Below, in pieces: positions 20,917 through 55,818 of a DNA stretch of 64,000 nucleotides. This DNA is from Escherichia phage N2. The notes beneath the pieces were generated by a model that saw nothing but the letters and a program-made list of their open reading frames with translations, ran no database searches and was not told the DNA's origin. Position 1 is the stretch's first letter, and each line of letters starts with the position of its first letter. Where the stretch lies: sequence record ON645936.1. One strand, written 5' to 3'. A program made the translations under genes and the position numbers.

Positions 20917-22072
20917 TTAACTGATCTAGGTCAGTTTCTAAATCAGCTGCTGATTTGTTTTTACTTTCTGGAGATTTAAATTTTTCAACCTTTGAGTTAA
21001 TCAATTCATCAACTTCAGCTTCAACAATTTCATTACTATCAATAGCACCTAACTGATAAGCACGTTTAATAGCATCTCGGAATGGCTGATGCTTAAATAA
21101 AGGACCCCAGAATGTAGTGCAGTTGGTATCTTTTGCACGCCAAGATTTTTCTTCGCGAATCATCTCGCCTGTTTCTTCGTCAAGAAATTCACGAGCATAC
21201 CAGCCATTTTTAGGTTTTACTACAAATCCTAATTCAAGAGCCATATCTAACAATCCAGAATAAGGATCGATACCACCGTCAAATTTAACATCAATAAAGA
21301 ATTTACTTTTTTCTTTAACAGTACGAGATTTTTCTACATTTAGAACAAATTGATACCCCTGAAGATCAGAACCATCTTTAATCTGGCGCTTACCGATAAT
21401 GAATACAGTATCAGCCGAATACATTACGCCTGTACCACCTGTCATCACGGTTTTACTAAACATTTCAATTGTTTCAATTGTATGGTTAACCGCAACACAT
21501 GGAATATTTTTAATGCTAAAATAAGGAGTAACAATACGGAATAATGACTTCAGTGATTTAGCACGAGTCATATCTGCCACAGATTTTTCATTCAAGGCAT
21601 CTTCCGTTTCTTTCTTAGAAGCCATATTACCGATTGAGTCGATGAATACAATAACTTTTTCACCGCGCTCAATAGCTTCAAGCTGATTCACCATATCAAT
21701 TTTCAGCTGTTCAACTGACTGGATTGGCGTATGAATTACTCGTTCCGGGTCAACCCCCATGGATCGCAAATAAGCTGGAGTAATACCAAATTCACTATCA
21801 TAGAATAGACAAACCGCGTCAGGATATTTGTTCAAATATGCCGCAACCATAGTCAAAGACATATTTGATTTAAAGTGTTTAGAAGGCCCTGCGAAAATAG
21901 TTAAACCAGACTGCATACCGCCATCAATCGCACCAGAAATAGCAATATTGAGCATTGGAATTTTTGTACGGATTACATCCTTTTCATTAAAGAATTTAGA
22001 TGTAGTCAGTTCAGCAGTCATTTTAGAAGTGGAAGCTTTAATCAAACGGGATTTTAAATCTGCAATAGACAT
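20891..22072 (-). CDS. uvsX: RecA-like recombinase UvsX
   Basis: 393 aa; RecA core GPSKHFKSN. Confidence 0.9.
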   Translation of the reverse strand: MSIADLKSRLIKASTSKMTAELTTSKFFNEKDVIRTKIPMLNIAISGAIDGGMQSGLTIFAGPSKHFKSNMSLTMVAAYLNKYPDAVCLFYDSEFGITPAYLRSMGVDPERVIHTPIQSVEQLKIDMVNQLEAIERGEKVIVFIDSIGNMASKKETEDALNEKSVADMTRAKSLKSLFRIVTPYFSIKNIPCVAVNHTIETIEMFSKTVMTGGTGVMYSADTVFIIGKRQIKDGSDLQGYQFVLNVEKSRTVKEKSKFFIDVKFDGGIDPYSGLLDMALELGFVVKPKNGWYAREFLDEETGEMIREEKSWRAKDTNCTTFWGPLFKHQPFRDAIKRAYQLGAIDSNEIVEAEVDELINSKVEKFKSPESKNKSAADLETDLDQLSDMEEFNE

Positions 22073-22149
22073 TCATTTTTTCCATAGGCATCATTATATT
22101 TTCCTCACTGGTTAAAGATAGAGTAATTATAACACAATAAATTTAGGCA

Positions 22150-22998
22150 TTAATCAACCGCTATTGGATGAATAGCATTAAACTTATGAAACGCTTCTGA
22201 TTTTTCTTTGCGCGAAACACACATGCGAAAAACCTTTAATGGCTCGTCTTCTTCACCCAACGATTTTCGTTTTTCAATATTAGAAGTTTTCCAACGAGCT
22301 TGCTCTGGAAACTCTTTATTGATTTGCTCAAGAGCTCTATTATGTTTTGAATTACTACGAATTGAGCTGCATCCACCGGGAGCCTGCGCTTTTCCAGATA
22401 CAACCAAATATTTGAACAAGGCCAAATGCGGATAACCTTGATTAATTAAATTGAGAAATGCATACATATCTTCGCATAAATCAATTTTTCCATACCCAAT
22501 TTGTTCTGTTGTAAGTTTTCCAAGGTCATACCATGTATTCGTGAATCCATATGAATTTTCACGATAATTACCCCAAGATGAAGTAATTTTAAAAATAGGT
22601 AGACGAGCATGGCCATGATAATACCCGCAATCCATGGCATCTTCAACGTATTGAATCAATTCATAGAACTGTTCACGAGTTAATTGATTAATTTTATCTA
22701 CGCAGCGACGATCATCTTTCTTTCGCATTGAACTCATACGAATAGTAGTATCATCATCAATCATCCAAATTCGCTGACCTGCATACATATCAGTAATTGC
22801 TTTACGAGTACCAGCAATTCCATTAACATCATCAGGAATAGTTATAATTTTAGCTCTAGACCCGTAAGCGTCATAATAAGCTTTTTCTTCATGTTCACGT
22901 ACTACAATATGAGGTTCATAATCAGTCGGAAACATATCAAGGGCAGAAACTGCCCCTACGCGTTGATAGCTTGGAATTACGAATTGAATCATTTCCAC
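22150..22998 (-). CDS. putative DNA glycosyltransferase (DxD-type)
   Basis: 282 aa with IWMIDDDTT motif; sits where T4 has beta-gt but translation does not resemble T4 beta-gt as recalled. Confidence 0.5.
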   Translation of the reverse strand: MEMIQFVIPSYQRVGAVSALDMFPTDYEPHIVVREHEEKAYYDAYGSRAKIITIPDDVNGIAGTRKAITDMYAGQRIWMIDDDTTIRMSSMRKKDDRRCVDKINQLTREQFYELIQYVEDAMDCGYYHGHARLPIFKITSSWGNYRENSYGFTNTWYDLGKLTTEQIGYGKIDLCEDMYAFLNLINQGYPHLALFKYLVVSGKAQAPGGCSSIRSNSKHNRALEQINKEFPEQARWKTSNIEKRKSLGEEDEPLKVFRMCVSRKEKSEAFHKFNAIHPIAVD

Positions 22999-23729
22999 TC
23001 ACCATTATAATCTTTTTTCGCAATATGAGTTTCGCCAGTTTTCCACCAATGGTCAACCAAATAAAAATGACGGGAATACACATGAAGGCTTCCGACATTC
23101 CATATAATGGAACCTGCTTTATACTGACGAGTTGAATCGCCTGCATTCAAATCAGATACTAATTTATCTAATACGTATTTTTGCCATGCATAATCATTAC
23201 GGAATCCGAAGACCACGTCATTTGAGCGCATGCTTACTACTGCATTGACTTTCTTATCACGAATCAGGTACTGTACTGTATTAGTACACATGAAATCTGA
23301 CATGCCATCTTTATTGTAGTCAAACTGCATAGATGGACGAGTATAAATCATGATACCACGTCGAGAATCAGGATTTTGACCAAGTTCAGCTAAACACATG
23401 TCATATTGAGCATAGTTATCTTCTGACCAGATAGCCCAACCATAATTCGAGTTAATTTCACCTTTAGAAGATGCTACCTGTTGCCAAATCTTTGGTGTTT
23501 CACCTGGAATATCTTTAACAAACAGACTTTGAGACTTGTACCATTCAAGTTCACGCTGAATGTATTCATCATTAAGAGCGCCAAAAATAAACGGTTCATC
23601 TGCTACAAATGATGCGCCAATAATTTCAATAGTTTTAACACCAGTTTTATCAACTACGAAATCTTTTTCCTTTAATGCAGTTCCCAAATGAAGACGGATT
23701 TCTTCAACTGTCATAGAGTCACTAATCAT
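22989..23729 (-). CDS. 42: dCMP hydroxymethylase
   Basis: 246 aa, thymidylate-synthase-like; position. Confidence 0.85.
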   Translation of the reverse strand: MISDSMTVEEIRLHLGTALKEKDFVVDKTGVKTIEIIGASFVADEPFIFGALNDEYIQRELEWYKSQSLFVKDIPGETPKIWQQVASSKGEINSNYGWAIWSEDNYAQYDMCLAELGQNPDSRRGIMIYTRPSMQFDYNKDGMSDFMCTNTVQYLIRDKKVNAVVSMRSNDVVFGFRNDYAWQKYVLDKLVSDLNAGDSTRQYKAGSIIWNVGSLHVYSRHFYLVDHWWKTGETHIAKKDYNGEWK

Positions 23730-29424: not shown

Positions 29425-30111
29425 TTAAAAATCGTGGGTAGAATCAGCTTCAAGAGCTACTACATAATTCGCGTGTTCACCTTCAAATTTAGCAGCGCCT
29501 TGTTTACCTTTTGCCCAGAGCAGAAGTTTATAATTTCCTGGTTGCATTTTCATATTTGCCATATTGATAATGAAATTAAATGTATTTTCACCGTCATAAT
29601 CACCAAGAGTCAAAGAATATTTAACACGGGTCAAAGCAGAATCTTCCACTTTATTAAAACCGTTAATTACGATTTTACCTTCTTTTACTGTGATAGCAAT
29701 TGTATCAATCTGCAGACCGCGAGATACACGCAACAGCTGTTGAAGGTCTTCCGCTTTAATTTCAGTAACAACAGATGCTACCGGGAATGGAATTGGTTTA
29801 TTAGGAGCAACTACTGTACTCGGATCAGCTGCTGGCCAAAAAATTGTTGAACGGGCATCAGCAATTTTAATATTACCATCTTCTGACTGGGAAATTTCTG
29901 CATCATCATTAACTAGAGACAGAATACCGAGAAAACCGTTCAAATCGTAAATTGCTACATCAAAATCAATAGTGTCAGAAATATTTGCTTCCGCATAAGT
30001 TGTGCCATTAACCGCGCGAGTCATAATAAATTGACCGGATTTAAGCATAATACCAGAGTTAATAGTAGCGAAATTTTTCAAAATATTCAGCGTGTCTTTA
30101 GATAATTTCAT
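29425..30111 (-). CDS. 45: sliding clamp
   Basis: 228-aa ORF, position. Confidence 0.9.
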   Translation of the reverse strand: MKLSKDTLNILKNFATINSGIMLKSGQFIMTRAVNGTTYAEANISDTIDFDVAIYDLNGFLGILSLVNDDAEISQSEDGNIKIADARSTIFWPAADPSTVVAPNKPIPFPVASVVTEIKAEDLQQLLRVSRGLQIDTIAITVKEGKIVINGFNKVEDSALTRVKYSLTLGDYDGENTFNFIINMANMKMQPGNYKLLLWAKGKQGAAKFEGEHANYVVALEADSTHDF

Positions 30112-30995
30112 TTCAATTTCCTATTTACATAATAGTTAGACCAGGACCGTACAGCACCCTGATAAGATTCGTCGTTAAACCCATTAGCTACTGCAATTTT
30201 ACGAAATTTATTATAACTCGGTTTTCCGTAAGCATGCCATAAAGATTTTAATTCATCTTCATGTTCAATCCAAGTTCCTCTAGCTTTAGATTTTCTAAAT
30301 TTTGATTTGAATTCCGGTAAATTATTTCTAACAGTTGCTTGAATTGAAGCTCTCTGTCTTCTTTCAGCATTATTCCATAATTCTTTTTGAGATTTAGAAA
30401 TTTTTGATCTTACACTTTCTGAATTCATTATATCACTAAACTTTTTAGCATAACTACAATCAAGATATTTCAATTTCATCTTATTTGAGAGTTTAAGCTT
30501 TTTCTCATCGGTCCAGTGAATCTTCATTGAATTAGATATTTTGTATTTTACGTCAGAACTATGTTTGTAACCTTTACGAATACCAACATAATCTGGTGTG
30601 ATTTCAGATTGTGAAAGCTTTACAATTTTTCCAGTTAAAACATTTTTATATGTTCCATATCCTTTAGCACCAATTAAAGTATTTTCATCTGCGTACGCTT
30701 TATTAAAATATTTTATATTACTTTTTGCTTTAACTTTTAATTGAAAAAATCTTTCCAATTTTCTTGGATCTAATATAGTTTCAGCCAAAATTTTGACGGT
30801 ATATTTAGTGGTTTTAATAAGCTCAAAATATTCATCGCTATAACTCGATGACACGCTTCCAGTATAAATCTTTCCAGCTGAATCAATTATATTTGTTCCA
30901 TCGAAAATTGCGTCAATTTTCGAACCTATATAATAACACGGAAAAATATTTTTAGCTTCCCGCTCTGGAAAGCTAATAAGATATACTAAATTCAT
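30108..30995 (-). CDS. GIY-YIG homing endonuclease (seg-like)
   Basis: 295 aa; VYLISFPE...CYYIGS motif; basic repeat-rich C-terminus. Confidence 0.6.
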
Positions 30996-31381
30996 TTATT
31001 AAAATCAGCCGCAATTGTTTCCGCAACAATTTGAGCAGCAACAATTAGACGTTCATCTGCATTACCGCAATAATCATCTTCAAGGCGTTCACCGCATGAA
31101 GTTATAATAAATTTAGCACCAGCATTTAGAGATTCTGCCGTATGTTTGCGCATCAGTTCAATCCATTTATCACTCACTTCACGATCGATAGCTTCATAAT
31201 ACGCATGACGAGCAGGTGCAGATTTAATTTTGCTCTGAATAACTTCCATCGCGTTATCAGAAAGAGACAAAACCCATGCTCGACGAATTTTATTTTGGTT
31301 TTGTGGATTTGATTCAGAACGCACGTGTTTTGGCTGAATATCTTTTACATCAACAGTATAATTCACAGTAATTTTAGTCAT
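30992..31381 (-). CDS. rpbA: RNA polymerase-binding protein RpbA
   Basis: 129 aa; position. Confidence 0.6.
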
Positions 31382-31390
31382 AATACACCT

Positions 31391-31582
31391 TTAGTCATAA
31401 TAATCAGTAACAGTCCAAGCTTCATTTCTGTTGGACATTATTTTCGTATATTCTGATTTAAATGCATTCTTAAGCATAGATTCAGTAACTATATGCTCTT
31501 CATTAGAAAAATTATTTCTCAGAATATATCGTTTTATTTCAGGAATAGTTAATAGATGCTGTCCAGTTGAATATTCTGCCAC
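31391..31582 (-). CDS. hypothetical protein
   Basis: 63-aa ORF. Confidence 0.45.
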   Translation of the reverse strand: MAEYSTGQHLLTIPEIKRYILRNNFSNEEHIVTESMLKNAFKSEYTKIMSNRNEAWTVTDYYD

Positions 31583-31592
31583 AGTTCCTCCG

Positions 31593-31600
31593 TATAAATA
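31593..31600 (+). promoter_or_regulatory. late promoter for plus-strand HNH endonuclease
   Basis: exact TATAAATA on plus strand 33 nt before ATG 31634. Confidence 0.55.
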
Positions 31601-31633
31601 TGTTTATCACTCGCTGTATCAAAAGGATATGTT

Positions 31634-32350
31634 ATGAATTATAAACTAATTTATGAAAAGTTAATCTCTAATGCTAAATCTCGAAAACTTGATTGCTATA
31701 CTGAATCTCATCACATTATACCACGCTGTTTAAATGGCAGCGATGATGCTTCAAACTTAGTAGATTTAACACCAGAAGAGCACTATGTAGCTCATCAACT
31801 TTTAGTAAAAATTTATCCTTCTGAACCAAAATTAGTCTATGCTGCTAACATGATGACAGTTTCTACGAAATACGCTAAACGTAACAATAAAACTTTCGGC
31901 TGGATTCGTCGTAAACTCTGGGAAATAGAAAAGAATAAAGAGTTCTCCCAAGAGACACGAAAGAAAATGTCCGATGCAGTAGCTAATAAAGCAAGACTAA
32001 CTTGTCCACATTGCGGTAAGTCTGGATTAAGCGGGAATATGAATCGATGGCATTTTGATAACTGCCCAAATCACCCCAATCCTAAAGTTAGACCGCCAAT
32101 GTCTAAAGAACACAGAAATAATATCTCAAACGGGCTTAAAGCAATCGTTCTTGAAGAAACATCCTGCGAATTCTGCGGAATGATAGGCAAGAAATGCGTT
32201 ATCGCAGCGCATAGAAATTTCTGCAAGAAAAATCCAAATGGACGCAAGAAAACTGAAAAGACTGGTACTTGCGTCCATTGTGGTAAAGTTACCACTTTCG
32301 GAAATTTATCAAGATGGCATAATGATAATTGTAAATATAAACCTAGCTAA
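31634..32350 (+). CDS. HNH homing endonuclease with three zinc-ribbon repeats (plus strand)
   Basis: 238 aa; ESHHIIPRC...NLVDLTPEEH; three CxxCG...RWH..NC repeats; AAAGGA SD. Confidence 0.7.
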   Translation: MNYKLIYEKLISNAKSRKLDCYTESHHIIPRCLNGSDDASNLVDLTPEEHYVAHQLLVKIYPSEPKLVYAANMMTVSTKYAKRNNKTFGWIRRKLWEIEKNKEFSQETRKKMSDAVANKARLTCPHCGKSGLSGNMNRWHFDNCPNHPNPKVRPPMSKEHRNNISNGLKAIVLEETSCEFCGMIGKKCVIAAHRNFCKKNPNGRKKTEKTGTCVHCGKVTTFGNLSRWHNDNCKYKPS

Positions 32351-34031
32351 TCTTAGCTAAACTAAATCTACCAACTTTTTCCATTTGAATGTGCTGACCA
32401 TATTCCTGTGGGTCATGGTCTTTATGCGAAATTATGAAGAAGTTGGTATCCTTCAAACCATCTAAAATTTTAGCCACATTTTTAATACCTTCAGCATCAA
32501 ATGCACCGTCATACACTTCATCAAGAAATAAACAACTTATTTTAACACCTGAAACTTTTTCAGCAATATCACGCCAAGTAAATAAAAGAGCAATATCAAT
32601 TCGTGCTTTTTCACCTTGACTAAATGAAGCATAACTAAAATCTTCACGACCACGGGATTTAATTGTCTCATTAAATTCTTCATCTAATGTAAACACATAA
32701 TCCGCTTCCATTATTTTAAGATAATGGTTAATCTGCTTATTAAATAATGGAATGTACTTTTTAATAATAGCGCCTTTAATACCAGAATCTTTGAGCATAT
32801 CAGTCAAAATTCCTCTATGGTATTTTTCCATTACTAAATTAGTTTTTGTCTTAACAATTTTATCAAGTTCTTCTTGAAGCAGTGCTATTTCATCAGCATG
32901 GTCAATAAACTCAGATGATGCTTTTTCTATAGCCGCTTTAACTTTTTTAGCTTTATCTACCGTCGTGATTAGAGATTGCTTTTTATTGCGAATATCATTC
33001 GCCAACGTCTGCTGGGTTTTAATATTATCTCGGTATTCGTCAACAAGAACTTTTAAATTATCACGATGTGTTGAAAGCTGTTCAAATGAATGCGTACATT
33101 CAGAAACTTTATCTTTAATTTTAGAAACAACTTTATCACCAGAACTTAATTGTGACAAACAGGTTGGACATAATCCACCTTCGTGATACATATTAATGAC
33201 TTTATTATACGAGTCAATTTTTGATTTAATTAAAAATGCTTCTTGACCGATTTTATTAAATGCATCAGTCGGGTCTTCATCCAAAACAATATTAACTAAT
33301 CTTTCATTAGCTTCTTCTATTTCCGATTTTAACGTTCTAGCTTCTTTCGCCAAATCATCATACATATTCTGCAGACGAGTAAGGTTATCACCAGTTAATT
33401 TTTTCTGGCGTTCAACGTTATCATTATATATTTTAATTTGTTGGATAATACTATCTTTTTTAACATCAAGCACTTGGTTTTGTGAATTTAATTCACGTAT
33501 TAGTGCTTTATTAAGCTTATCCATTTCAGCTAATGTTCCTACCTCAAGCAGGTCTTCCACAAGCTTTCTTCGCGCAGGGGTCGACAAACCCATGAAAGGG
33601 GTATACCCTGCTGTACCAAGGACAACAATCTGCTTGAAACTGGCATATGACATTCCGATAAGCTGTTCAAATTCTGCTTGGAAATCTTTACTGCTGGCAG
33701 ATTCATTAAGACGTGTACCGTTAACGGTGATTTCGAAAACGTTTGGTTTTTGTCCTCTTTTGATATAGTACTTTTTCTCATCATATTCCATCCACAGTTC
33801 AACTAAAAGTTCTTTCTTATTTGTGCTGTTTATTAATTGACCTTTCTTTACATCACGGAATGGCTTGCCAAAAAGCCCAAATGTGATGGCTTCTAACATA
33901 GTAGACTTACCACCGCCATTTCGTCCAGTAATAAGAGTTTTTTGAACCTTATCTAATTGAATGTCAACTCCATTTTGACCAACTGACATTATATTTTTAT
34001 ATTTTACTCTATTAAGTTTAAATGATTTCAT
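32343..34031 (-). CDS. 46: Rad50/SbcC-like recombination ATPase
   Basis: 562 aa; Walker A GRNGGGKST; coiled-coil middle. Confidence 0.9.
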   Translation of the reverse strand: MKSFKLNRVKYKNIMSVGQNGVDIQLDKVQKTLITGRNGGGKSTMLEAITFGLFGKPFRDVKKGQLINSTNKKELLVELWMEYDEKKYYIKRGQKPNVFEITVNGTRLNESASSKDFQAEFEQLIGMSYASFKQIVVLGTAGYTPFMGLSTPARRKLVEDLLEVGTLAEMDKLNKALIRELNSQNQVLDVKKDSIIQQIKIYNDNVERQKKLTGDNLTRLQNMYDDLAKEARTLKSEIEEANERLVNIVLDEDPTDAFNKIGQEAFLIKSKIDSYNKVINMYHEGGLCPTCLSQLSSGDKVVSKIKDKVSECTHSFEQLSTHRDNLKVLVDEYRDNIKTQQTLANDIRNKKQSLITTVDKAKKVKAAIEKASSEFIDHADEIALLQEELDKIVKTKTNLVMEKYHRGILTDMLKDSGIKGAIIKKYIPLFNKQINHYLKIMEADYVFTLDEEFNETIKSRGREDFSYASFSQGEKARIDIALLFTWRDIAEKVSGVKISCLFLDEVYDGAFDAEGIKNVAKILDGLKDTNFFIISHKDHDPQEYGQHIQMEKVGRFSLAKIS

Positions 34032-34046
34032 TTTGTATCCAATTGT

Positions 34047-34901
34047 TCACAATGAAGAAAATTCTTTAACTAAAGCCTGTAATGAAGCCTCTATTGGATA
34101 TCCATTCTTAACTAACATTTTCCTAAACATCACATGTTTAGGACGATTATATGATATCCACAATTCATACAATTTATCTTTATTATCCCAATGATAGCCT
34201 TTTCGTCGAGATGCTATATGAGCTTTTCTAATCTCCGGATTTTTCCAACTAGCAGCTACTGAATTTGATATAGCTATTTTATATTCAGGTTTTGATAAAG
34301 CAGCGCGAACAGCCCTTTGGTGTTTAATTTTATTTTCTTCGTTATTAAACCATTCCCTTGAAGCCATTGAAATTTTTTGTTTTGTTTTAAAATTATTTAA
34401 TCTTTCTTTGTTATCTTTTCTATTTTTTGCTACTGAAAAATATTTTAATGCCCTTTCTCTAGCAGCATTTCTATTTTGCGGATTTGAATAATACTGTTGA
34501 AGCCTTTTTGATATTGTGTCACTTACATCTTGTTTTATAAAACTATATTCAGCAGCTATTAAATCAACTTCGGCTAAAGATAAATTTTTATATGTTTTTC
34601 CTGACATCATTCTATTTAAAGCATTTAGCATTTTTCCATTTTTACCTTTTGCTAATAAGAAATGTGCTTTGAAATGATTGAAATGACTTAAATTAACTAA
34701 ATTCCATGTAGATTTTAAATATTCAGGAAATATTGATTTAGGAAGCACGTGATGTGCTTCCGTTTTACCTGGAGTTTTAACAGTTGAATTCATAGAAATA
34801 AAATTAATGTAAGACTTGGCGTCTTCTTCGCTCAACACTAATTTTTCAACTAATTCCTTTATTAAAAATTCATCATTAATATCAAGTTTAAAATTCTTCA
34901 C
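34047..34901 (-). CDS. HNH homing endonuclease
   Basis: 284 aa; EAHHVLPKS...NLVNLSHFNH; GTG start with AAGGAA SD. Confidence 0.6.
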   Translation of the reverse strand: MKNFKLDINDEFLIKELVEKLVLSEEDAKSYINFISMNSTVKTPGKTEAHHVLPKSIFPEYLKSTWNLVNLSHFNHFKAHFLLAKGKNGKMLNALNRMMSGKTYKNLSLAEVDLIAAEYSFIKQDVSDTISKRLQQYYSNPQNRNAARERALKYFSVAKNRKDNKERLNNFKTKQKISMASREWFNNEENKIKHQRAVRAALSKPEYKIAISNSVAASWKNPEIRKAHIASRRKGYHWDNKDKLYELWISYNRPKHVMFRKMLVKNGYPIEASLQALVKEFSSL

Positions 34902-35113
34902 AAAAGATTCCTTTTAATGTATCTTTTAGACCATTCTATCATATCATCATAATCTAAAAAGTATTCATCAAATTCAGCCATGCAAACAACACCTTGTGCT
35001 GCTTTTGATGTGATATAAATTATTCCAACATATCTAGAATCTTCTTCGGTGTAATCAATATTTGCTATGAATTCATCGTTAATGTCAAATGTCGAAAACT
35101 TCACAGTATGCAT
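34898..35113 (-). CDS. hypothetical protein
   Basis: start moved to internal ATG (MHTVKF) to limit overlap. Confidence 0.4.
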   Translation of the reverse strand: MHTVKFSTFDINDEFIANIDYTEEDSRYVGIIYITSKAAQGVVCMAEFDEYFLDYDDMIEWSKRYIKRNLL

Positions 35114-35348
35114 CCTTAATACAAGATACAGCCATATCTTGTAATGATTTAGGTGTGTCATTATCTAAAATGTTGAAGTTAAAAGATACAGCCCAGTCAG
35201 TGCAGACCGTGACCTTTTTAATACAATTATCTTCAACCTCTAACGGTTCAAACCAATATTCAATAATTTCTTTATGCCCAATATCATCTTTTACTTCACA
35301 TTCAAAATGCTGACTCATCATAACATTTTTAAATTCATCAAAAGTCAT
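35085..35348 (-). CDS. hypothetical protein
   Basis: 87-aa ORF upstream-coupled to gene 47. Confidence 0.4.
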   Translation of the reverse strand: MTFDEFKNVMMSQHFECEVKDDIGHKEIIEYWFEPLEVEDNCIKKVTVCTDWAVSFNFNILDNDTPKSLQDMAVSCIKDAYCEVFDI

Positions 35349-36364
35349 TGTGTTGCCTCTACATATAACTGATTTGCATATTGAATAAGTGCTTCGCGAT
35401 CAGAATCAGTGATGTCTGGAATTGCATTAATGTATTCTTCCATCAACGTCTGAAGAGATTGAACTTCAACTTCTTCGCTATCATCTGACTCGACAGAGTT
35501 ATCAATCTTTGACACAACTCGTAATGAATGCACAACTTTTTCTAGTTCAGATTCGAACTTCGTTAGATTTTTGTCTACCTCAGTTACTATAACACGCACT
35601 GATAGATTTGTAAAATCTTTATAGTCAATTTTTCCCTTAAATGGATACTGAATTCGACGATGCCAGGTAGTGTTGTTTGGAATAAATTCCATTCGTTCTG
35701 TTTCTGTATCAAACATCCAGAACCCACGAGAGTCATTCTCGTCACCTGCAGTTAGTGTCCATGGTGTCCCAATATATCTGACGTTAGCAGCCTCAGAGAT
35801 AGTATGGAAGTGACCAGACCACACCTCTTTATAAGTCTTAAGGAAATCAGGTTCAAGACCGTGAGATTTCATTCCTTTATAAAAATAAAATCCATTCAAC
35901 TCCCAGTGACCAACACAAAAAGAAGCAGATGAAGTTTTGATGTGTTCAAGAATTTCACCAGTATTTTCTTCGCACATCCAAGGAATTAAATCAATCAAAC
36001 ATCCGTCAAAATCTACTGTAGTAGGCTTATCATATACTTTAACATTAGGATATTTAGCCAAAAGCTCAGTAGAGGCATTTGGATGCATTACATTTTTATA
36101 GTGGAGATCGTGATTTCCTACAATAGTATGTAATGTGATTCCAACGTCATCAAGCATTTGAACTATTTCGCGAGCAAACTCCATAGTTTTATGCGTGATC
36201 GCTTTTCGCACATCAAAAATATCACCATATTGAATCCATACAGTAATTCCGTTTTTCTTAGAATATTCTATCGCTTGCTTAATTCCATCAATTTGAATAC
36301 CGCGAATCCACTCATCATCAGCTTTAACGCCTAAATGCCAATCACCTAAATTTAAAATTTTCAT
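35345..36364 (-). CDS. 47: Mre11/SbcD-like nuclease
   Basis: 339 aa; phosphoesterase motif GDWHLG. Confidence 0.9.
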   Translation of the reverse strand: MKILNLGDWHLGVKADDEWIRGIQIDGIKQAIEYSKKNGITVWIQYGDIFDVRKAITHKTMEFAREIVQMLDDVGITLHTIVGNHDLHYKNVMHPNASTELLAKYPNVKVYDKPTTVDFDGCLIDLIPWMCEENTGEILEHIKTSSASFCVGHWELNGFYFYKGMKSHGLEPDFLKTYKEVWSGHFHTISEAANVRYIGTPWTLTAGDENDSRGFWMFDTETERMEFIPNNTTWHRRIQYPFKGKIDYKDFTNLSVRVIVTEVDKNLTKFESELEKVVHSLRVVSKIDNSVESDDSEEVEVQSLQTLMEEYINAIPDITDSDREALIQYANQLYVEATQ

Positions 36365-36542: not shown

Positions 36543-37743
36543 ATTTTGTAATAATGTCAAACTGTTCTTTAAAGCAGAAGCTTGAATCTTGATGCTGATA
36601 CAAAAATTCATAAGCTTTTTCACGTTCACGGTCATAAAGAGCTCGGTCAGATGACAGTTCTTTAATACGTTCAAATGTTGATTCCATGTCATTTTCATCA
36701 AACCAAACGATACCGCTATCGTGTGAAATTAATGGAGTATTATCAACACGGAATTTTAAATTTTCGCCAGTAGATTTCCAAAATACCGGAATTGTTCCAC
36801 ATGCACCAAGCTCGAGATGAGTATATTCTAAAGAACGTTGTAGATATTTTTTGTCCAACTTACTCAGCTGATAACCAAATCCGGATTTACTCATGCGTTC
36901 AAGCATTTCGCTATTTACATAACGGTCGAGAATTTGCGTCGGCAAATTAGGAGCAATTTTAATTTGGTCTACTTGGTGAAGACGATAATACTCGTATGGA
37001 ATTCCTTTTTCTTTAATAGGAATGAACGCTGGAGAACGTTCCAGACCTTCCATAATAGTACTTAGTCCTGCAGGTTTAAGATGTTTTTCATGAAAATCAA
37101 ACATCTGATAAAAACCTTTCCATGTAGTCGTACGACCAATCCAACGGTTGATATTCATGTTAATTTCAGAAACATCTTTCCAGTAGGTTGACCGAACCTT
37201 CGCAATATCCATAGGAGGCTGAAAGTTATATACTGCCGGTGCTTCTTCAATATCATCAAACAGAGAAACTGTTTCAGGATACCATTCTTTCATCAGAACT
37301 TTATTAAAATCACCATTATCAGAATGGCTAAAAATAACATCAGCTCGACGAACAGTTTCTTCTAATCCCAAATTTCGGCGCAAAGAAAGAGAAGAATGGT
37401 CATGTTGATAAACTACAACACGAACAGAAGGTTTAATGTTATCAATAATTTTTTTATAGTTATTAATAGTGTCTTCTTCAACCGAAGTAGCAGGAACTGA
37501 ATTGATAATTAGAATATCACAATCATTTACCAGCTTAAGTGTTTTATCGTATTCTTTTGCCAATAAAACTGGAATTGAAAATGATTTATAATCATGCGCG
37601 CAATTACGAGTAAATGATTTATCTTTAGCATAAACCAAAGTCACTTCATGACCATTTTTAATAAACCAATCACGTTGCTCGAGTGAGAATTTTGTTACAC
37701 CACAACCTTCAAGACCTCGAGCCATAAAAATACATACTTTCAT
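36541..37743 (-). CDS. agt: alpha-glucosyltransferase
   Basis: 400 aa starting MKVCIFMARGLEGCGVTKF. Confidence 0.85.
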   Translation of the reverse strand: MKVCIFMARGLEGCGVTKFSLEQRDWFIKNGHEVTLVYAKDKSFTRNCAHDYKSFSIPVLLAKEYDKTLKLVNDCDILIINSVPATSVEEDTINNYKKIIDNIKPSVRVVVYQHDHSSLSLRRNLGLEETVRRADVIFSHSDNGDFNKVLMKEWYPETVSLFDDIEEAPAVYNFQPPMDIAKVRSTYWKDVSEINMNINRWIGRTTTWKGFYQMFDFHEKHLKPAGLSTIMEGLERSPAFIPIKEKGIPYEYYRLHQVDQIKIAPNLPTQILDRYVNSEMLERMSKSGFGYQLSKLDKKYLQRSLEYTHLELGACGTIPVFWKSTGENLKFRVDNTPLISHDSGIVWFDENDMESTFERIKELSSDRALYDREREKAYEFLYQHQDSSFCFKEQFDIITK

Positions 37744-37809
37744 TTAATATCCTCTTTGTTTTGGTTTATTTTACCAAAAATTTATAAAGCAATATAGGAG
37801 CCGAAGCTC

Positions 37810-42079: not shown

Positions 42080-42550
42080 TTAATCATGTTTCCACACCCC
42101 ATCGGTATTTGACCAAAGTCGCTGATTATCTGAACCTCGCCACAGCTTTTTGGTTGGAAGATTTTTCTCATACTTCCCATCAATAATAACATCAACATAT
42201 TTAAGCATTTCTAGTTGTTTAATATCTTCAAACTTGTACCCTGTCCACAACCAAATGCTTTTATTTGGATAAAGATTTTTTACAGTTTGAACAATGCAAT
42301 GAACATCATCTCGGTTATCAGGATAAAGAGGGTCACCTCCAGTTATAGTTAATCCTTCTATATAATCATTATTCAAACATTCAATTAATTGTTCTAGTGT
42401 TTCACCAGTAAATGGAACGCCATTTCTAGCATTCCATGTTGATTTATTATAACACCCTTCGCATTTATGCAAACAACCTGTAACGAAAAGAACTGTCCTG
42501 CATCCAGGACCATTAACAAAGCAGCACGGGTATATTCTGTCATAATTCAT
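42080..42550 (-). CDS. nrdG: anaerobic RNR activating enzyme (radical SAM)
   Basis: 156 aa from ATG at 42550; CLHKCEGC cluster motif. Confidence 0.85.
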   Translation of the reverse strand: MNYDRIYPCCFVNGPGCRTVLFVTGCLHKCEGCYNKSTWNARNGVPFTGETLEQLIECLNNDYIEGLTITGGDPLYPDNRDDVHCIVQTVKNLYPNKSIWLWTGYKFEDIKQLEMLKYVDVIIDGKYEKNLPTKKLWRGSDNQRLWSNTDGVWKHD

Positions 42551-43377
42551 AATAATATCCAATTTTTCCAAGCTTCATCAGTAGAATTACAGCGTTTTAG
42601 TATAAGATGTCTAGAAACTTTTATGGCATTTGAGCACTTTTTAATTGAATCATATTTAATACCGTCAACTGAAACGGTTTTGCTAGTTGGAGAAATTTTT
42701 CCATACATTGGATTTTTTGAACCAACTTGAAGTCCTTTTAAAGCTTTTGAAAGCTTTTGTCTAGATTCCAATGACATGGGAGAATTCTTTTTACCTTCAA
42801 TAATTCGCTTGCGATGAAGTTCGCGTTCTTCTTCACTCAAAGAATTGTAATATTTTTTAACACCGTTTGATATAGATAATTTATCTTTCTCAGACCGCTC
42901 TCCAGCTAATTTACTTCTAACATCTTTTCGCTTCATAGCTATGCTTACGGCTTTATTTAAATTTGCTTGATGCTCTGGCGTACGTTTATATTTCTTTAAA
43001 GCACGTGAAATAGCTATTTTAGTTTCTTCTGTTCTCTTTTTACCTTTATTTGCTAAACTATTTTTGCGGCGATGTTCAAGTGTCTGTTCATAGGCAGTTC
43101 CACCTTTTCCACCAGGTTTAATATTATATGTATTTTCTTTTAGACAATACTCTTCGGTTACAAGTTCAGCTTCTTTATCATACATTTGTTTTTCATTATC
43201 AAAAACATGTAAAATTTCTTTATTAAAATTTTTTCTACCATATTTTAATAAAGCGGCACGAATCAATGTTCCTGACCCCATATAACCGTCATTTATGTTA
43301 TCGGTGCTATGCGCACCGATATATTCCTTTGAATTAATTATATTTGTTATTTTATAAATTATATAATACCTATGCAT
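42547..43377 (-). CDS. GIY-YIG homing endonuclease between nrdD and nrdG
   Basis: 276 aa; YIIYKITN...EYIGAH; start overlaps nrdD stop by 8 nt. Confidence 0.6.
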   Translation of the reverse strand: MHRYYIIYKITNIINSKEYIGAHSTDNINDGYMGSGTLIRAALLKYGRKNFNKEILHVFDNEKQMYDKEAELVTEEYCLKENTYNIKPGGKGGTAYEQTLEHRRKNSLANKGKKRTEETKIAISRALKKYKRTPEHQANLNKAVSIAMKRKDVRSKLAGERSEKDKLSISNGVKKYYNSLSEEERELHRKRIIEGKKNSPMSLESRQKLSKALKGLQVGSKNPMYGKISPTSKTVSVDGIKYDSIKKCSNAIKVSRHLILKRCNSTDEAWKNWILL

Positions 43378-44644
43378 GTTTTACTCGTTTTACCATTTCT
43401 TTCATTTTACCTAAATTCCATGGAACAACGCTAGGAGTTCCAAGATATCCGCATGTTCTTCTTATTGTGTTCATCTTTTTAGGATCAGTTTCTCCACAAA
43501 TAGAACAAACAAATCCGTTTTCAGTAGGAGTCATTTCATGGGTACTTCCACATGTAAAACATTTATCTACTGGCATATTAACACCAAAATAATCTAAATG
43601 TTGTGCAGCATAATCCCATACAGCCTCAAGACCTTTTAGGTTATTTTTCATATCAGGAAGTTCAACATAAGAAATGTGACCACCTGTCGCAATGAAATGA
43701 TACGGGGCTTCGCGAGAAATCTTTTCAAACGGAGTAATATTTTCTTCTACTGAAACGTGGAAACTGTTAGTATACCAGCCTTTATCGGTAACATCTTTTA
43801 CACTTCCATATTTCTCAGTATCAAGTTTACAGAAGCGATAGCACAGGTTTTCAGCAGGAGTAGAATACAAACTAAAAGCAAATCCGGTTCTTTCAGTCCA
43901 CTGCTTAAGACGAGCATTCATTTTAGTTAAAATTTCTTGTCCAATATCACGACCGACAAGAATATTCAATTCGTGAATACCAATGTATCCTAAGGACACT
44001 GAACTTCTACCGTTTTTAAATAACTCAATTATATCGTCATCAGGTTTAAGACGAACCCCGAATGCACCTTCTTGGTAAAGAATAGGAGCAACAGTCGCTT
44101 TAACTCCTTTTAAGGAACTAATTCTACACATCAAAGCTTCAAAACATAAATCCATTCGTTCATTGAACAATTCGGCAAATTTCTGTTCATTGAACTGTGT
44201 TCCAATATAAGAATCTAACGCAATACGAGGAAGATTCAGTGTTACAACGCCAAGATTATTACGTCCATCAAGAATTTCATTACCAGTGGAATCTTTCCAT
44301 ACGCCCAAGAAACTACGACAACCCATTGGAGAAACAGGAATAGATGAACCTGTGATAGCTTTATTGTTCTTAGCTGAAATAATATCAGGATACATCCTTT
44401 TGCTTGCGCACTCTAAAGCAAGCTGCTTAATATCATAGTTCGGATCGTCTTTATAAAGATTAACACCCTCTTCAACGAACATAACAAGCTTAGGGAAAAT
44501 AGGAGTTATCCCATCACGACCGAGACCTTTAATACGATTTTTCAGAATTGCTTTCTGAATCATTCGTTCAGTCCAGTCAGTTCCCGTGCCAAACGTAATT
44601 GTTACAAAAGGCGTTTGTCCATTAGAGCTGAAAAGTGTATTTAC
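43370..44644 (-). CDS. nrdD: anaerobic ribonucleotide reductase NrdD, exon 2 (5' boundary approximate)
   Basis: C-terminal glycyl-radical motif RRTCGYLG and CxxC..CxxC zinc ribbon; splice site not mapped. Confidence 0.75.
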   Translation of the reverse strand, partial: VNTLFSSNGQTPFVTITFGTGTDWTERMIQKAILKNRIKGLGRDGITPIFPKLVMFVEEGVNLYKDDPNYDIKQLALECASKRMYPDIISAKNNKAITGSSIPVSPMGCRSFLGVWKDSTGNEILDGRNNLGVVTLNLPRIALDSYIGTQFNEQKFAELFNERMDLCFEALMCRISSLKGVKATVAPILYQEGAFGVRLKPDDDIIELFKNGRSSVSLGYIGIHELNILVGRDIGQEILTKMNARLKQWTERTGFAFSLYSTPAENLCYRFCKLDTEKYGSVKDVTDKGWYTNSFHVSVEENITPFEKISREAPYHFIATGGHISYVELPDMKNNLKGLEAVWDYAAQHLDYFGVNMPVDKCFTCGSTHEMTPTENGFVCSICGETDPKKMNTIRRTCGYLGTPSVVPWNLGKMKEMVKRVKHA

Positions 44645-44675
44645 TTCATCATTATATTCAGCATGAGTCGCAAAT

Positions 44676-45446
44676 TCATGCCCGTTTATATGAAACAACA
44701 AAATTTGGATAGTCCATAGATATGCAACGTTCTTTTATAGTGCTAGGATGAAAATTTAGCGCTTTAGCTGCTTCTATATAAGACGTATACTTAATACCGT
44801 CAACAACCACATATTCAGGAACTTTATGAATAGTAGTCTTAATACTCAAAACAAGAGGATGAGTTTCGACTTCACTTTCAGTGCAATTTAAATATTCCGC
44901 TGCTTTTTTAAAACTTCTAAAAGTTTTATTTTTAAGCTTTATCGATACTTGTTTTTTACTTTTTCGACTATTGATATTATTTTGCACATGTTCCTTAGAT
45001 CTTCCGTTTTTAGCATAATATTCAGCTACAGAAGATTTTATATTGTTTTTATGAGATTCGGATAACACTTTACCCTTATGAGCATCTCTTAATTTTTGAA
45101 TATGTTCTTCAGTATCCGGATGCTTATAAAACTTTTTACCGCCTATGGATTTATTTAAACATTTTTTGCTATAAAAATATTTACGTATGACCTCTTCTTC
45201 ATGTTTTAATGCATCTTTATAACTATCAAATGTTTTTAAAATTATCCATTTAGTAGGTGTATCAGTTTTTAAGCGTTCATTTATATACTTAGATGACGTT
45301 GTGTAAGTTTTCCAGTTTGTGGGCTTGTTTTTAATTGTTCTAAATTTTTTATAACCGATATAAATGTCGCCATTAGAAAACTTAACTAAGTATGTAAATG
45401 CGTCTTTATCTTTTATTTTAGTACAACGTCTTTTTATCCATTTCAT
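44676..45446 (-). CDS. intron-encoded GIY-YIG endonuclease (I-TevII-like)
   Basis: 256 aa; YLVKFSNGDIYIGYKK; GAGGTG SD; late promoter upstream. Confidence 0.65.
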   Translation of the reverse strand: MKWIKRRCTKIKDKDAFTYLVKFSNGDIYIGYKKFRTIKNKPTNWKTYTTSSKYINERLKTDTPTKWIILKTFDSYKDALKHEEEVIRKYFYSKKCLNKSIGGKKFYKHPDTEEHIQKLRDAHKGKVLSESHKNNIKSSVAEYYAKNGRSKEHVQNNINSRKSKKQVSIKLKNKTFRSFKKAAEYLNCTESEVETHPLVLSIKTTIHKVPEYVVVDGIKYTSYIEAAKALNFHPSTIKERCISMDYPNFVVSYKRA

Positions 45447-45475
45447 TGTTTCACCTCGTATTCATAAGATAATCT

Positions 45476-45483
45476 TATTTATA
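45476..45483 (-). promoter_or_regulatory. late promoter inside nrdD intron
   Basis: exact TATAAATA on minus strand about 30 nt before endonuclease ATG 45446. Confidence 0.55.
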
Positions 45484-45689
45484 CAAGATGACTGCTGCAT
45501 GTCGCCATGCAGATTAGACTATATCTTCATCTTTCGATGCCGGCCGTTTCGAATAGCATTAGCTTCTATTCTACACCGCTACATTCATCACGGTTAGTCG
45601 TTAGGCATTTAGTTCAAAAGAACATTTAGCACGGGATTGTCTACTAGAGAGGTTCCCCGTTTAGACCGGTTTTACATGAGCCTGAATTA

Positions 45690-46232
45690 AATTAACTCAT
45701 ACGCCTGGAATGCATCGTATACGTCTTTTTCTGTTTTAGATTGGGCATAATTCAATGCATCTGCGATTTGCCATTTTTCCGCGTCCTCAATATGTTTTGC
45801 ATAGGTGCGTTTAACATAAGGAGAAAGTACTTTATCTACATTCGCAAAAGTCGTTCCACCATATTGATGGGAAGCAACCTGTGCAGTAATTTGTGCCATA
45901 ATTGCAGTAGCAACGCCAATTGATTTAGGAGTTTCAATTTGAGCATTGCCTAATTTAAATCCATTCTCAAGCATCCCCTTTAAATCGACTAAACAGCAAT
46001 TAGTAAATGGAAGAGCAGGGGAATAATCAATATCGTGCACGTGAATAATTCCGCTTTCATGCGCTTTCATAATAAAAGACGGGACCATATTTTTGGCAAT
46101 GTGCTTAGACACAATACCAGCCATAAGGTCCCGTTGAGTTGGAAAAACACGAGAATCTTTATTAGCATTCTCGTTTAAAAGGTCTTTATTAGTTTTATGA
46201 ATCAATCCTTCAATTTCTTTTTCAATTGTCAT
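45690..46232 (-). CDS. nrdD: anaerobic ribonucleotide reductase NrdD, exon 1 (3' boundary approximate)
   Basis: 181-aa N-terminal part; frame closes at 45687 at intron edge. Confidence 0.75.
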
Positions 46233-51921: not shown

Positions 51922-52641
51922 TTAGGATTCTTCTAAATGTCTTTTCTGAAAAGTTGATACCATACTACGATACGGTTCATTTGGATATCCGTGTTTTATA
52001 GCTTCCTTTGTAAATTTTCTCCATCCATATTTAGTTTCTTTCCAAAGCTCGAATAATTCATCTTCATACTGCCATATAGTTAAATGAGAACGCTTTGCAG
52101 CTTTAATTCCATTAATATGCTTTTCTTTTACTGCAGGATTGCTTAGTTTCTTTTTAATAATATTACTAACTTTTCTAACAAAAACTGGGTCCTTATATCG
52201 TTGCGAAGTTTTTATTGAAGTGTTTAATTTAGCTTCCGGCGTGGATGTAACCTCTTTCATCTTTTTCTTCATATGCTGTATATGATTAGGATTTTTCCAT
52301 AAATTTATAGAATGCTTTTTGCATTTTATCCTAGTTTCATCTGCAACCTTTCCTCCTTCACCCCCGTATGACAGGTTAACACAGTTTTTTCCATATTTCA
52401 ATTTACCTGCCATGATATATAATATTTCAGCTTGTACCATTTTATCATAATTATCAAAAACTTCTAAAACCGTTTTTGATAATATGTGGTCATTTGACAC
52501 TTTTACACGTTCTATATAATTTCCACTACCAACATACGAATCATTGATGTTATTAGTTATATGTCGACCATAATAGTATTTCTTAATACCTGTCTTTAAA
52601 TTTAATATTTCAGTTTTATAGATAGTAAAATATTTTTTCAT
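51922..52641 (-). CDS. GIY-YIG-like homing endonuclease
   Basis: 239 aa; FTIYKTEI...YYYGRH...YVGSG; basic C-terminus. Confidence 0.5.
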   Translation of the reverse strand: MKKYFTIYKTEILNLKTGIKKYYYGRHITNNINDSYVGSGNYIERVKVSNDHILSKTVLEVFDNYDKMVQAEILYIMAGKLKYGKNCVNLSYGGEGGKVADETRIKCKKHSINLWKNPNHIQHMKKKMKEVTSTPEAKLNTSIKTSQRYKDPVFVRKVSNIIKKKLSNPAVKEKHINGIKAAKRSHLTIWQYEDELFELWKETKYGWRKFTKEAIKHGYPNEPYRSMVSTFQKRHLEES

Positions 52642-54344: not shown

Positions 54345-55358
54345 TCATTTATAATAACTTCGGTAGTTTTCAAGATAAACCCTCTCAAGGAAGTCATCCC
54401 AAAAACCCATGTCTACTTTTTGCTGCATACCGTTCTTAGAAGCTTCAATGGATGCTGCTTCTACTTGATCGACCACATCTTCCAAAAACTCTTGAACAGT
54501 TTTAAATGGGTGTTTACCCAGCTTCACGTCGAGAATAAATGGAGCGTCTTGAAGTGGATAAACCAAGTCACCAGTTTTGTAAATTTCCAATAGTTGGAGT
54601 CCACCACGACAAGCATGACTTAGAGCTTTCCAGTCAATGCCCTCATTCGCTTCAGCCTTACGAGCACGTTCGCCATATTCAGCATCAAGTTTATTCAAAG
54701 ACTGCTTAAGCTCAATAAGAGAAAGTGTTGTCTGATATTTACGACCCAACACGGTATAGAACATTTGCGGGCCTGTTTTCTCATGGTTATGGAATACCCA
54801 TTCACAGAACTCGTTTTCAGGGAGTCTGTGTTTGATATCTTCTACCTTAGTACGACGAAGTCTATCAGGGATTCCTTCTTGATAGTCGACCCACTGGTCA
54901 GGGATTTGATTAACTACTTTCAATACATCACGTAATGCGGCCAAACGAGAACCCTTGACACCGTATTTAGAAGCTTGCTTGCGGACATATCCTAAATAGG
55001 ATTTCATGTTAGTTGTATAAAACCGTGAACGATTGTCTTGGATAAATTTCCATACATCAGGCAAATCAGATTTAACCACTAGTTCAGGCGGAGTGTGAAG
55101 CATATCCAATGCTACAGTTTCACCATCTGCTGCTAATTTAAAGAAATACTTAAGACTGTACAGTTCATGGTCAATATCATCTTTGGTGTTTTTAGATGAT
55201 GTGTTGTTAGTGTTTTTACTCATATGCTCTTTAACATTTCCGATAAGAATATCGCGAGCAGGAGGAACAAAGATTTCTTTAAAATCTACATCAGATTCTG
55301 GAGTAGAAGTTCCATAAAGATGACTACCAAAATAGCTTTTCATTACTGTTTTCATCAT
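54345..55358 (-). CDS. pol-beta-superfamily nucleotidyltransferase-like protein
   Basis: 337 aa; N-terminal GSHLYGTSTPESDVDF (hG[GS]...DhD) motif. Confidence 0.55.
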   Translation of the reverse strand: MMKTVMKSYFGSHLYGTSTPESDVDFKEIFVPPARDILIGNVKEHMSKNTNNTSSKNTKDDIDHELYSLKYFFKLAADGETVALDMLHTPPELVVKSDLPDVWKFIQDNRSRFYTTNMKSYLGYVRKQASKYGVKGSRLAALRDVLKVVNQIPDQWVDYQEGIPDRLRRTKVEDIKHRLPENEFCEWVFHNHEKTGPQMFYTVLGRKYQTTLSLIELKQSLNKLDAEYGERARKAEANEGIDWKALSHACRGGLQLLEIYKTGDLVYPLQDAPFILDVKLGKHPFKTVQEFLEDVVDQVEAASIEASKNGMQQKVDMGFWDDFLERVYLENYRSYYK

Positions 55359-55816: not shown

Positions 55817-55818
55817 AA

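Follow-up and report, generated by a model that had tools for sequence, protein, structure and literature searches.

Three intact open reading frames (ORFs) break the T4 gene order 45-rpbA-45.2-46-46.1-46.2-47 in Escherichia phage N2 (ON645936.1), and all three are very probably free-standing homing endonuclease genes (HEGs) of the classical T-even seg/mob kind, each in its own slot of the 45-47 block. The window analysed here is the first 64 kb (64,000 nucleotides) of this T-even (Tequatrovirus) genome. ORF1 (30108-30995, minus strand) is a GIY-YIG gene between gene 45 and rpbA, ORF2 (31634-32350, plus strand) an HNH gene between 45.2 and gene 46, and ORF3 (34047-34901, minus strand) a second HNH gene between genes 46 and 46.1. 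We infer their nuclease activity, target sites and current mobility from family membership, intact motifs, distribution and linked sequence tracts.

Three HEG insertions at junctions that are empty in T4

A first-pass annotation, made from the letters of the sequence and a list of its ORFs, had reported these three genes. Its coordinates and strands proved exact, the neighbouring genes it named agree with Pfam, and its assignment of one GIY-YIG and two HNH homing endonuclease genes agrees with the PHROG families and with similarity to SegG, MobB and MobD. It had also stated that T4 has no endonuclease genes at these junctions. This was correct, since the T4 reference NC_000866 has zero genes at these places: a spacer of 55 bp separates 45 from rpbA, another of 55 bp separates 45.2 from 46, and 46.1 and gene 46 overlap. 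BLAST of the window against T4 left three clean window-only segments of 875, 786 and 857 bp. No T4 ortholog of the three genes was found at the same positions. Otherwise window and T4 are collinear, beginning with rIIA at coordinate 1 and continuing up to about 64 kb, with 87-97% identity in nearly all aligned blocks and lower identity in the nrdG-nrdC stretch. In the 45-47 block the nearest database relatives are the Salmonella phages GRNsp7 and F13076 and various Escherichia and Shigella Tequatroviruses.

Two parts of the annotation did not hold. The elements were described as insertions into essential genes, but they are located at gene boundaries; the flanking genes are complete and contiguous, and genes 45, 46 and 47 stay full length. 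What has been remodelled is the gene ends, namely the last codon of rpbA, the start codon of 45.2, and the last four and first three codons of gene 46. They were also called a phage-specific set, whereas near-identical copies of ORF1, ORF2 and ORF3 are present in 24, 58 and 70 records of other phages, respectively, and all pairs are known. The PHROG matches and these near-identical annotated genes indicate that the three are not chance ORFs.

ORF1, a SegG-like GIY-YIG gene between gene 45 and rpbA

ORF1 starts with ATG and encodes 295 amino acids. It matches a PHROG 'homing endonuclease' family (E 2e-31), and its N-terminal nuclease domain is 39% identical over 103 amino acids to T4 SegG (E 5e-16), an active GIY-YIG enzyme (PMC2988022, Table 1). 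The motif pair L-V-Y(5) and Y-I-G(22-24) is invariant in the family members and SegG, and the spacing between VY and YIG is 16 residues as in SegG, the usual spacing being 10-11. The candidate catalytic residues E81 and N98 are invariant in the family and align to E75 and N90 of I-TevI, in a profile-profile alignment of only 37% probability (E 3.5e-4). At the position of I-TevI R27 there is no Arg in ORF1, and the Seg proteins including SegG are also without an obvious aligned Arg; the invariant K26 and K42 of ORF1 might stand in for it. The C-terminal half is predicted to consist of helical repeats and a helix-turn-helix-like tail. It is similar to the C-terminal half of ORF3 (E 2e-11), and the same module is found in MobD, SegA and SegF. 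Phage HEGs are known to shuffle their nuclease and DNA-binding modules (PMC2988022).

By BLAST and junction alignment, the ORF1 insert comprises 875 bp (30123-30997) and replaces 51 bp of the T4 45/rpbA spacer (T4 32614-32664). The T4 stretch that was lost carries a middle-promoter-like motif (TGCTTTA-N-TATAAA, T4 32657-32633), and the insert changes the last rpbA codon from Arg to Lys. ORF1 is joined to both neighbours by ATGA overlaps, one with the rpbA stop and the other with the gene 45 start, and the Shine-Dalgarno sequence of gene 45 (AGGAAA) lies within the last codons of ORF1. A motif scan located a candidate middle promoter for gene 45, TGCTTAC-N12-TATAAT, in the 3' end of ORF1 (30210-30234, minus strand). 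MotA-box-like motifs were also observed 126-129 nt upstream of the gene 45 ATG in three ORF1 homologs of 57-59% identity (L011, L013 and L014), where they are better MotA boxes than that of the window. We infer from these motifs that a promoter of gene 45 may be embedded in ORF1; constraint on the protein may explain part of their conservation.

The 57-59% identical relatives occupy the same rpbA/45 junction on metagenomic T4-like contigs, whose neighbouring products are 79% and 68% (gp45) and 82% and 65% (gp46) identical to those of the window. Very few relatives of ORF1 were found in the sequence search. A hairpin with a 10-bp stem (UUAGCUUUCC...GGAAGCUAA) followed by a U-rich stretch is located at codons 7-15 of ORF1 (30952-30976, minus strand; 91-nt fold, -23.3 kcal/mol, z -2.6). 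A role for it as a translational regulator or terminator was set aside, as the aligned stretch in L011 and L013 is not conserved.

ORF2, a MobB-like HNH gene linked to a divergent gene 46 allele

ORF2 (238 amino acids, ATG start) lies on the strand opposite to all its neighbours, and the 3' ends of ORF2 and gene 46 share 8 bp. It matches PHROG 655 'homing endonuclease' (E 9e-69), and its N-terminal HNH domain is 44% identical to T4 MobB (E 6e-30), with the motif S-H-H(26-27)...N41...H50...H54. The C-terminus contains three CxxC..H..C repeats which are 38% identical to the T4 I-TevIII remnant (E 1e-8). A profile of the Mob proteins together with ORF2 and ORF3 matched solved HNH domains at the catalytic motif (6me0, E 9e-5; 6ghc; Cas8f-HNH; pyocin AP41), and searches of the Protein Data Bank sequences with the three ORFs singly and with a SegG-group profile returned nothing relevant.

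The T4 late-promoter consensus TATAAATA is present 34 bp upstream of the ORF2 ATG (31593-31600, plus strand) and is followed by the Shine-Dalgarno sequence AAAGGA. The 64-kb window contains five copies of this consensus, two of them on the plus strand, against 10 expected by chance. The bins around the motif (31560-31679) show zero differences from the ORF2 carriers RB32 and F13076.

The insert of 786 bp (31577-32362) replaces 72 bp of T4 (33244-33315), comprising the 45.2/46 spacer with its middle-promoter-like motif and the last four codons of gene 46. In the motif scan, both T4 spacers lost to the ORF1 and ORF2 inserts thus hold MotA-box/-10 motifs. As a consequence of the second insert, gp46 ends in ...GRFSLAKIS in place of ...GRFTVMV in T4, and 45.2 starts with GTG instead of ATG and has gained one extra codon. 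Another MotA-box-like sequence, TGCTTTA-N12-TATTAT, was observed antisense within ORF2 (32118-32143, minus strand), about 540 nt upstream of 45.2. Possibly it compensates for the middle promoter that the spacer has lost, in which case an RNA antisense to ORF2 would result.

The last 240-280 bp or so of gene 46 (32343-32620, minus strand) form a divergent allele, which covers the ATP-binding cassette (ABC) signature, Walker B, D-loop, H-loop and C-terminus of the Rad50-like ATPase. Per 60 bp, this tract differs at 9-16 positions from T4 and T6, which are without ORF2, and at 0-3 positions from RB32 and F13076, which carry it. The codon differences comprise 16 silent and 18 replacement changes, suggesting a foreign allele that travels with ORF2 and goes beyond silent immunising changes. 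The database search found the allele at 95% identity or more in 59 records and at 82% or less in all others, with nothing at 90-95%; ORF2 is present in 58. Across about 500 genomes ORF2 is, in these comparisons, linked near-perfectly to a gene 46 3' allele that is roughly 19% diverged. Relatives of the zinc-finger domain of ORF2 (36-62% identity) adjoin or overlap gene 46 in several T4-like phages of Klebsiella, Enterobacter and Cronobacter. In Cronobacter phage leE (Pseudotevenvirus), the relative is likewise on the opposite strand and shares 14 bp with the end of gene 46.

ORF3, a MobD-like HNH gene that captured the start of gene 46

ORF3 (284 amino acids, GTG start) matches PHROG 655 (E 8e-45) and PHROG 12434 'HNH endonuclease' (E 6e-16), and is 30% identical to T4 MobD over 243 amino acids (E 4e-18). 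Its residues H50, H51, N67, H76 and H80 are invariant with T4 MobB, MobC, MobD and MobE. In the predicted model, strands at 47-51 and 68-72 and a helix at 73-84 cover the HNH motif residues, with a predicted local distance difference test (pLDDT) score of 85-90.

According to the junction sequences, the insert (870 bp, 34014-34883, corresponding to the 857-bp window-only BLAST segment) follows codon 6 of gene 46. The T4 gene begins GTG AAG AAT TTT AAA CTT / AAT AGA..., overlapping the stop of 46.1. The same 18 bases open ORF3 in the window and provide its first six codons and initiation site, and gene 46 restarts 870 bp downstream as ATG AAA TCA TTT AAA CTT / AAT AGA, with a weak Shine-Dalgarno sequence and diverged codons 1-6. 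A 9-bp direct repeat, TTTAAACTT, flanks the insert at 34884-34892 and 34014-34022, and the structure of the ORF3/gene 46 junction in T6 is identical to that in the window. ORF3 relatives at other loci begin MNYDRFYPCDFVNDKL and share the N-terminal extension of about 25 amino acids that is typical of their subfamily; hence the exchange with gene 46 was limited to the first six codons of ORF3, and the idea that the extension was born by fusion with gene 46 was rejected. No RNA structure beyond that of shuffled controls was seen in the 5' regions of ORF2 and ORF3 or at the new start of gene 46.

The empty ORF3 site of T4 is identical in sequence to the ORF3 flanks. In RB32 and F13076, which have no ORF3, the 5' end of gene 46 reads CTA AAC CGA GTT AGG TAT CAA..., with 13 differences in 60 bp, some of which change amino acids. 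This substitution cluster begins exactly at the ORF3 insertion point and extends to its 3' side (equivalent to 33960-34022 in the window); the RB32/F13076-type 5' end may be a candidate cleavage-resistant target allele. Sequences at least 95% identical to ORF3 were found only inside Tequatrovirus, and the next relatives are at most 45% identical and at other loci. The T2 copy (L016 1201-2053) is 97% identical and is annotated as two ORFs of 615 and 258 bp. It is a frameshifted, decaying HEG, representing the decay stage of the HEG life cycle.

Distribution among relatives and linked tracts

About 503 Tequatrovirus records were compared, a carrier being defined by a copy at least 95% identical (mostly 98-100%). 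ORF1 was found in 24 records, ORF2 in 58, including RB32 (RB32ORF054w, 'similar to mobB'), RB33, RB51 and RB68, and ORF3 in 70, including T6 (T6ORF054). The junction was identical in every carrier inspected, base by base in T6, RB32 and F13076 and by annotated position in GRNsp7, G28 and Lutter; the decayed ORF3 copy of T2 is at the same junction. Two elements occur together in 18 records: ORF1 with ORF3 in four, ORF1 with ORF2 in three, and ORF2 with ORF3 in 11. These counts are about as expected for independent assortment (3.3, 2.8 and 8.1, respectively). No database record besides the window holds all three elements, since the best record covers at most 89% of the 7-kb block. As only 0.16 triple records are expected, this absence is unremarkable.

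A fourth slot was observed between 47 and a-gt, where a different HNH endonuclease gene of 624 bp replaces 47.1 in Lutter (L009 5604-6227) and G28 (L010 6318-6941). Through this slot G28 already holds three HEGs in the 45-to-a-gt block, and across the pangenome the block has four HEG slots. Since ORF1 and ORF2 have relatives in the same slots in other genera, and ORF3 is confined to Tequatrovirus and decayed in T2, the first two belong to old, site-bound lineages, and ORF3 resembles a recent arrival, with decay under way in one host.

For the tract comparison, informative sites over 9.6 kb were scored between the window and two relatives, F13076 (ORF1 and ORF2) and GRNsp7 (ORF1 and ORF3). A run of 66 consecutive F13076-type sites spans ORF2 and the gene 46 tract, and 34 consecutive sites around ORF3 (33066-35256, 2.2 kb) are GRNsp7-type and not F13076-type, as for a donor-type tract. 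Outside the HEG blocks the window is a fine mosaic of the two, with 43 private differences. The two longest parental-type runs are exactly those holding ORF2 and ORF3. The ORF2-linked allele and the ORF3 tract look like footprints of homing with co-conversion.

Proposed mechanism and alternative explanations

The proposed mechanism is modelled on established work on T4 SegF, SegG, SegB and MobE. During co-infection with an element-free relative, the enzyme would cut the empty allele near the insertion point, and recombination-dependent repair by the phage would then copy the HEG and flanking donor sequence into the break. The outcome would be intronless homing with co-conversion, also visible as marker exclusion, as established for T-even seg/mob genes (PMC2988022, PMC2790892, PMC2330249). 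A review lists promoter-less cassettes, promoters located inside HEG reading frames, co-conversion and marker exclusion as typical of T4 HEGs (PMC2988022).

Promoter use at the three ORFs is likewise predicted from motifs. Neither ORF1 nor ORF3 has an obvious promoter of its own; both would be promoter-less cassettes read from the upstream early/middle transcript, with translation coupled to rpbA through the ATGA overlap for ORF1 and to 46.1 through a GTGA overlap for ORF3. The ORF3 element presumably recombined into codon 6 of gene 46, where it would use the ribosome-binding site and GTG of gene 46 and hand gene 46 a new ATG and recoded codons 2-3. ORF2, facing the opposite way, is probably transcribed late from its own TATAAATA promoter.

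Several results weigh against mobile homing endonucleases at these junctions. Neither Pfam nor NCBIfam gave an above-threshold nuclease-domain match for any of the three ORFs: ORF1 had no match to the Pfam GIY-YIG model, and ORF2 scored 16.9 bits against Pfam HNH, under the cut-off of 21.4 bits. Since genuine T4 SegG has no Pfam match and genuine T4 MobD, at 18.1 bits, is also under the HNH cut-off, this silence is uninformative. Fold searches with the whole ORF3 model were uninformative as well. The binned comparison with relatives detected no flanking tract linked to ORF1, and the divergence of ORF1 in other genera tracks that of its neighbours, which fits vertical descent equally with homing. 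Given its many replacement changes, the gene 46 tract could also be a plain mosaic segment from another lineage and not a target-immunity allele.

The results on ORF1 would also fit a reading in which some copies, ORF1 above all, are immobile, that is, fixed and vertically inherited HEG-derived genes which are retained for signals that their neighbours need. In ORF1 these signals would be the candidate middle promoter and the ribosome-binding site of gene 45, and in the ORF3 element the start that it provides to gene 46. The insertions removed promoter-like motifs of T4, the MotA-box-like motif upstream of gene 45 is kept in all the distant ORF1 homologs, and these homologs share the rpbA/45 junction with divergence comparable to that of their neighbours; embedded promoters are known to favour HEG retention (PMC2988022). 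However, only 24 of about 503 Tequatrovirus genomes have ORF1, although their sequences otherwise agree to more than 95%, and ORF1 assorts freely with the other two elements; this pattern calls for repeated gain or loss within the genus. In addition, the full-length ORF and its candidate catalytic residues are kept at 57% identity, which argues for selection on the protein and not on DNA signals alone, and we regard fixation of this kind as unlikely. Slightly less likely again is retention of the nucleases mainly for the benefit of the phage, either by excluding the replication/recombination alleles of co-infecting relatives or by producing useful rearrangements. Three elements within 5 kb would jointly form an exclusion zone over genes 45-47, and the ORF1 and ORF2 lineages have long been intact at the same sites across genera. 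Benefits of phage HEGs have recently been reported, namely an intron HEG acting in interference competition (PMC11620839) and amplification of anti-defence loci by SegB (PMC13096335). Sequence cannot separate such a benefit from selfish drive, but most Tequatroviruses are without each element and the T2 copy of ORF3 has decayed, as for dispensable selfish genes.

Homologous recombination among T-even phages might also produce patchiness and tracts by mosaicism alone, with the HEGs as passive passengers and no nuclease-initiated conversion. The fine mosaic outside the HEG blocks, with its private differences, shows that recombination is rampant with or without HEGs. Nevertheless, the longest parental runs contain ORF2 and ORF3, the linkage between ORF2 and its gene 46 allele is near-perfect despite this mosaicism, and the catalytic motifs are intact; we therefore consider passive transfer very improbable. 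Free-standing HEGs that home with co-conversion remain the reading we prefer. Whether they also act together is a separate matter: the three elements could form a joint drive cassette imposing the 45 and Mre11/Rad50-type 46/47 alleles of this phage on co-infecting relatives, a proposal that we make tentatively and with considerable doubt. If it is true, the ORF2 lineage would have spread a functionally distinct allele of the gp46 C-terminal ATPase (ABC signature to H-loop, 18 replacements) through Tequatrovirus, and a selfish nuclease would be reshaping the recombination enzyme which its own homing is thought to need.

Neighbouring genes and RNA features

Gene 45 (29425-30111, minus strand), encoding the sliding clamp gp45, is intact as judged by its ORF and Pfam. 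RpbA (30992-31381) and gp45.2 (31391-31582; GTG start, ATG in T4) were assigned by Pfam. Gene 46 (32343-34031, minus strand) is intact and encodes a Rad50/SbcC-like protein of 562 amino acids (SMC/Rad50-like in Pfam), and the HEGs on either side have reshaped both of its ends. Judged by its homologs in T4 and T6, 46.1 (Pfam DUF5487) spans 34898-35104 and encodes 68 amino acids; the 87-amino-acid ORF listed for it (34898-35161) is over-extended relative to these homologs. The gene 46.2 (Pfam T4_Y03C) is located between 46.1 and 47, and gp47, a metallophosphoesterase in Pfam, is encoded at 35345-36364.

No intron or RNA family was found in the region at the Rfam gathering score. The sole Rfam match, RAGATH-8, scored 21.5 bits against a gathering score of 86.7 and was dismissed as chance. 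A sigma-70 promoter scan returned 39 matches against 34 expected from shuffles, showing no enrichment.

Other HEG-like ORFs in the window

Further HEG-like ORFs were observed outside the 45-47 block. The ORF at 42547-43377 (minus strand) encodes a classical Seg-type GIY-YIG protein of 276 amino acids (YYIIYKITNIINSKEYIGAHS...) between nrdG and nrdD, where T4 has mobC. In Pfam it matches NUMOD3 and, weakly, SegE_GIY-YIG and I-TevI_DNA-bd. We take it to be probably SegH, which was reportedly described by Sandegren et al. in 2005. A Seg-like ORF of 239 amino acids (YFTIYKTE...YYYGRHITNNINDSYVGSG) at 51922-52641 (minus strand) lies in a window-only insert between the positions of T4 nrdC.9 and nrdC.10 and has no Pfam match. 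Its C-terminus (TIWQYEDELFELWKETKYGWRKF...GYPNEPY) is the DNA-binding module of ORF1, ORF3 and MobD. The nrdD gene (43370-46232, minus strand) consists of two ORFs parted by about 985 bp at the position of the T4 nrdD intron. The gap contains an inner ORF (44676-45446) of 256 amino acids, about the size of T4 I-TevII, and no group I intron was detected in it at the Rfam gathering score.

Several HEGs of T4 itself are missing from the window. Without the 60.1/mobA segment (2793-2858), the gene 60/39 region is shorter by about 1.05 kb, a single ORF of 282 amino acids (22150-22998, within 22060-23007) stands in place of segA and b-gt, mobB is absent at 37734-37759, and the mobD slot (55355-56340) contains a pair of unrelated ORFs. 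No free-standing HEG-like ORF identified in the window is a copy of a T4 free-standing HEG, and only the nrdD intron ORF has a T4 counterpart.

Significance of the locus

Free-standing seg/mob genes with a patchy distribution among T-even phages have been textbook knowledge since the 2000s. The three genes described here are already known in public genomes, where many are annotated as homing endonucleases, and they are ordinary elements. Having been deposited in T6, RB32, RB51 and dozens more genomes, they carry little weight as a discovery, and the start-codon capture by ORF3 and the ORF2-linked gp46 allele, as read from the sequence, are tidy, minor details. A literature search for names of, or experiments on, these three genes found none.

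The locus is nevertheless a convenient natural system, in which three independent HEG slots, and a fourth (47/a-gt) in relatives, are located within about 6 kb, and culturable phages offer empty, occupied, decayed (T2) and possibly resistant (RB32-type 46 5' end) alleles. It illustrates the ways in which the expression of HEG and host genes can be fitted together: translational coupling, a predicted late promoter on the opposite strand, a candidate embedded middle promoter and start-codon capture. Speculatively, taking over the first six codons of a host gene, its start codon included, could be a general route by which a HEG becomes undeletable. For annotation pipelines, it is relevant that the SegG-like and MobD-like subfamilies sit below the Pfam and NCBIfam thresholds.

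Comparison with known systems

The closest known elements are T6ORF054, RB32ORF054w (in RB32, RB51 and RB68) and F13076_0130, which are the same genes at the same junctions with 98-100% DNA identity; none of these phages has all three. RB32ORF054w and F13076_0130 are annotated as homing endonucleases, and T6ORF054 is a 'hypothetical protein' in MH550421 and a 'homing endonuclease' in the RefSeq record of T6.

Among characterised enzymes, SegG resembles ORF1 in being free-standing, in its location just upstream of an essential replication gene and in its VY-x16-YIG spacing. It differs in lying between genes 32 and 59, whereas ORF1 is located at the rpbA/45 junction and has a different C-terminal half. 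Gene 32 promoters inside segG are documented (PMC2988022), and the parallel with ORF1 and gene 45 is a candidate only.

ORF2 combines features of MobB, MobE and I-TevIII, having a MobB-type HNH N-terminus and an I-TevIII-like CxxC..H..C tail. MobB carries NUMOD1 modules in Pfam, which are not present in ORF2. ORF2 is further set apart by being free-standing, by its opposite-strand position with the overlap into gene 46, and by its three zinc-finger-like repeats. Intron-encoded HEGs of T4 use late promoters (PMC2988022), and the same is predicted for ORF2.

ORF3 shares with MobD, an uncharacterised free-standing HNH protein, the HNH core, the basic helical repeats and a C-terminal 'HW..D.LY.LWI..NRPK' domain. 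It differs from MobD in its locus, its N-terminal extension and its first six codons, which are derived from gene 46. HEGs that disturb a host gene which is still functional are known from mobE in nrdA of Aeromonas phage Aeh1 ('genes in pieces') and from T4 mobA between genes 60 and 39 (PMC8351571, PMC2988022). Unlike mobE in nrdA, ORF3 leaves gene 46 unsplit: the first six codons are duplicated and recoded, and gp46 is a single full-length protein.

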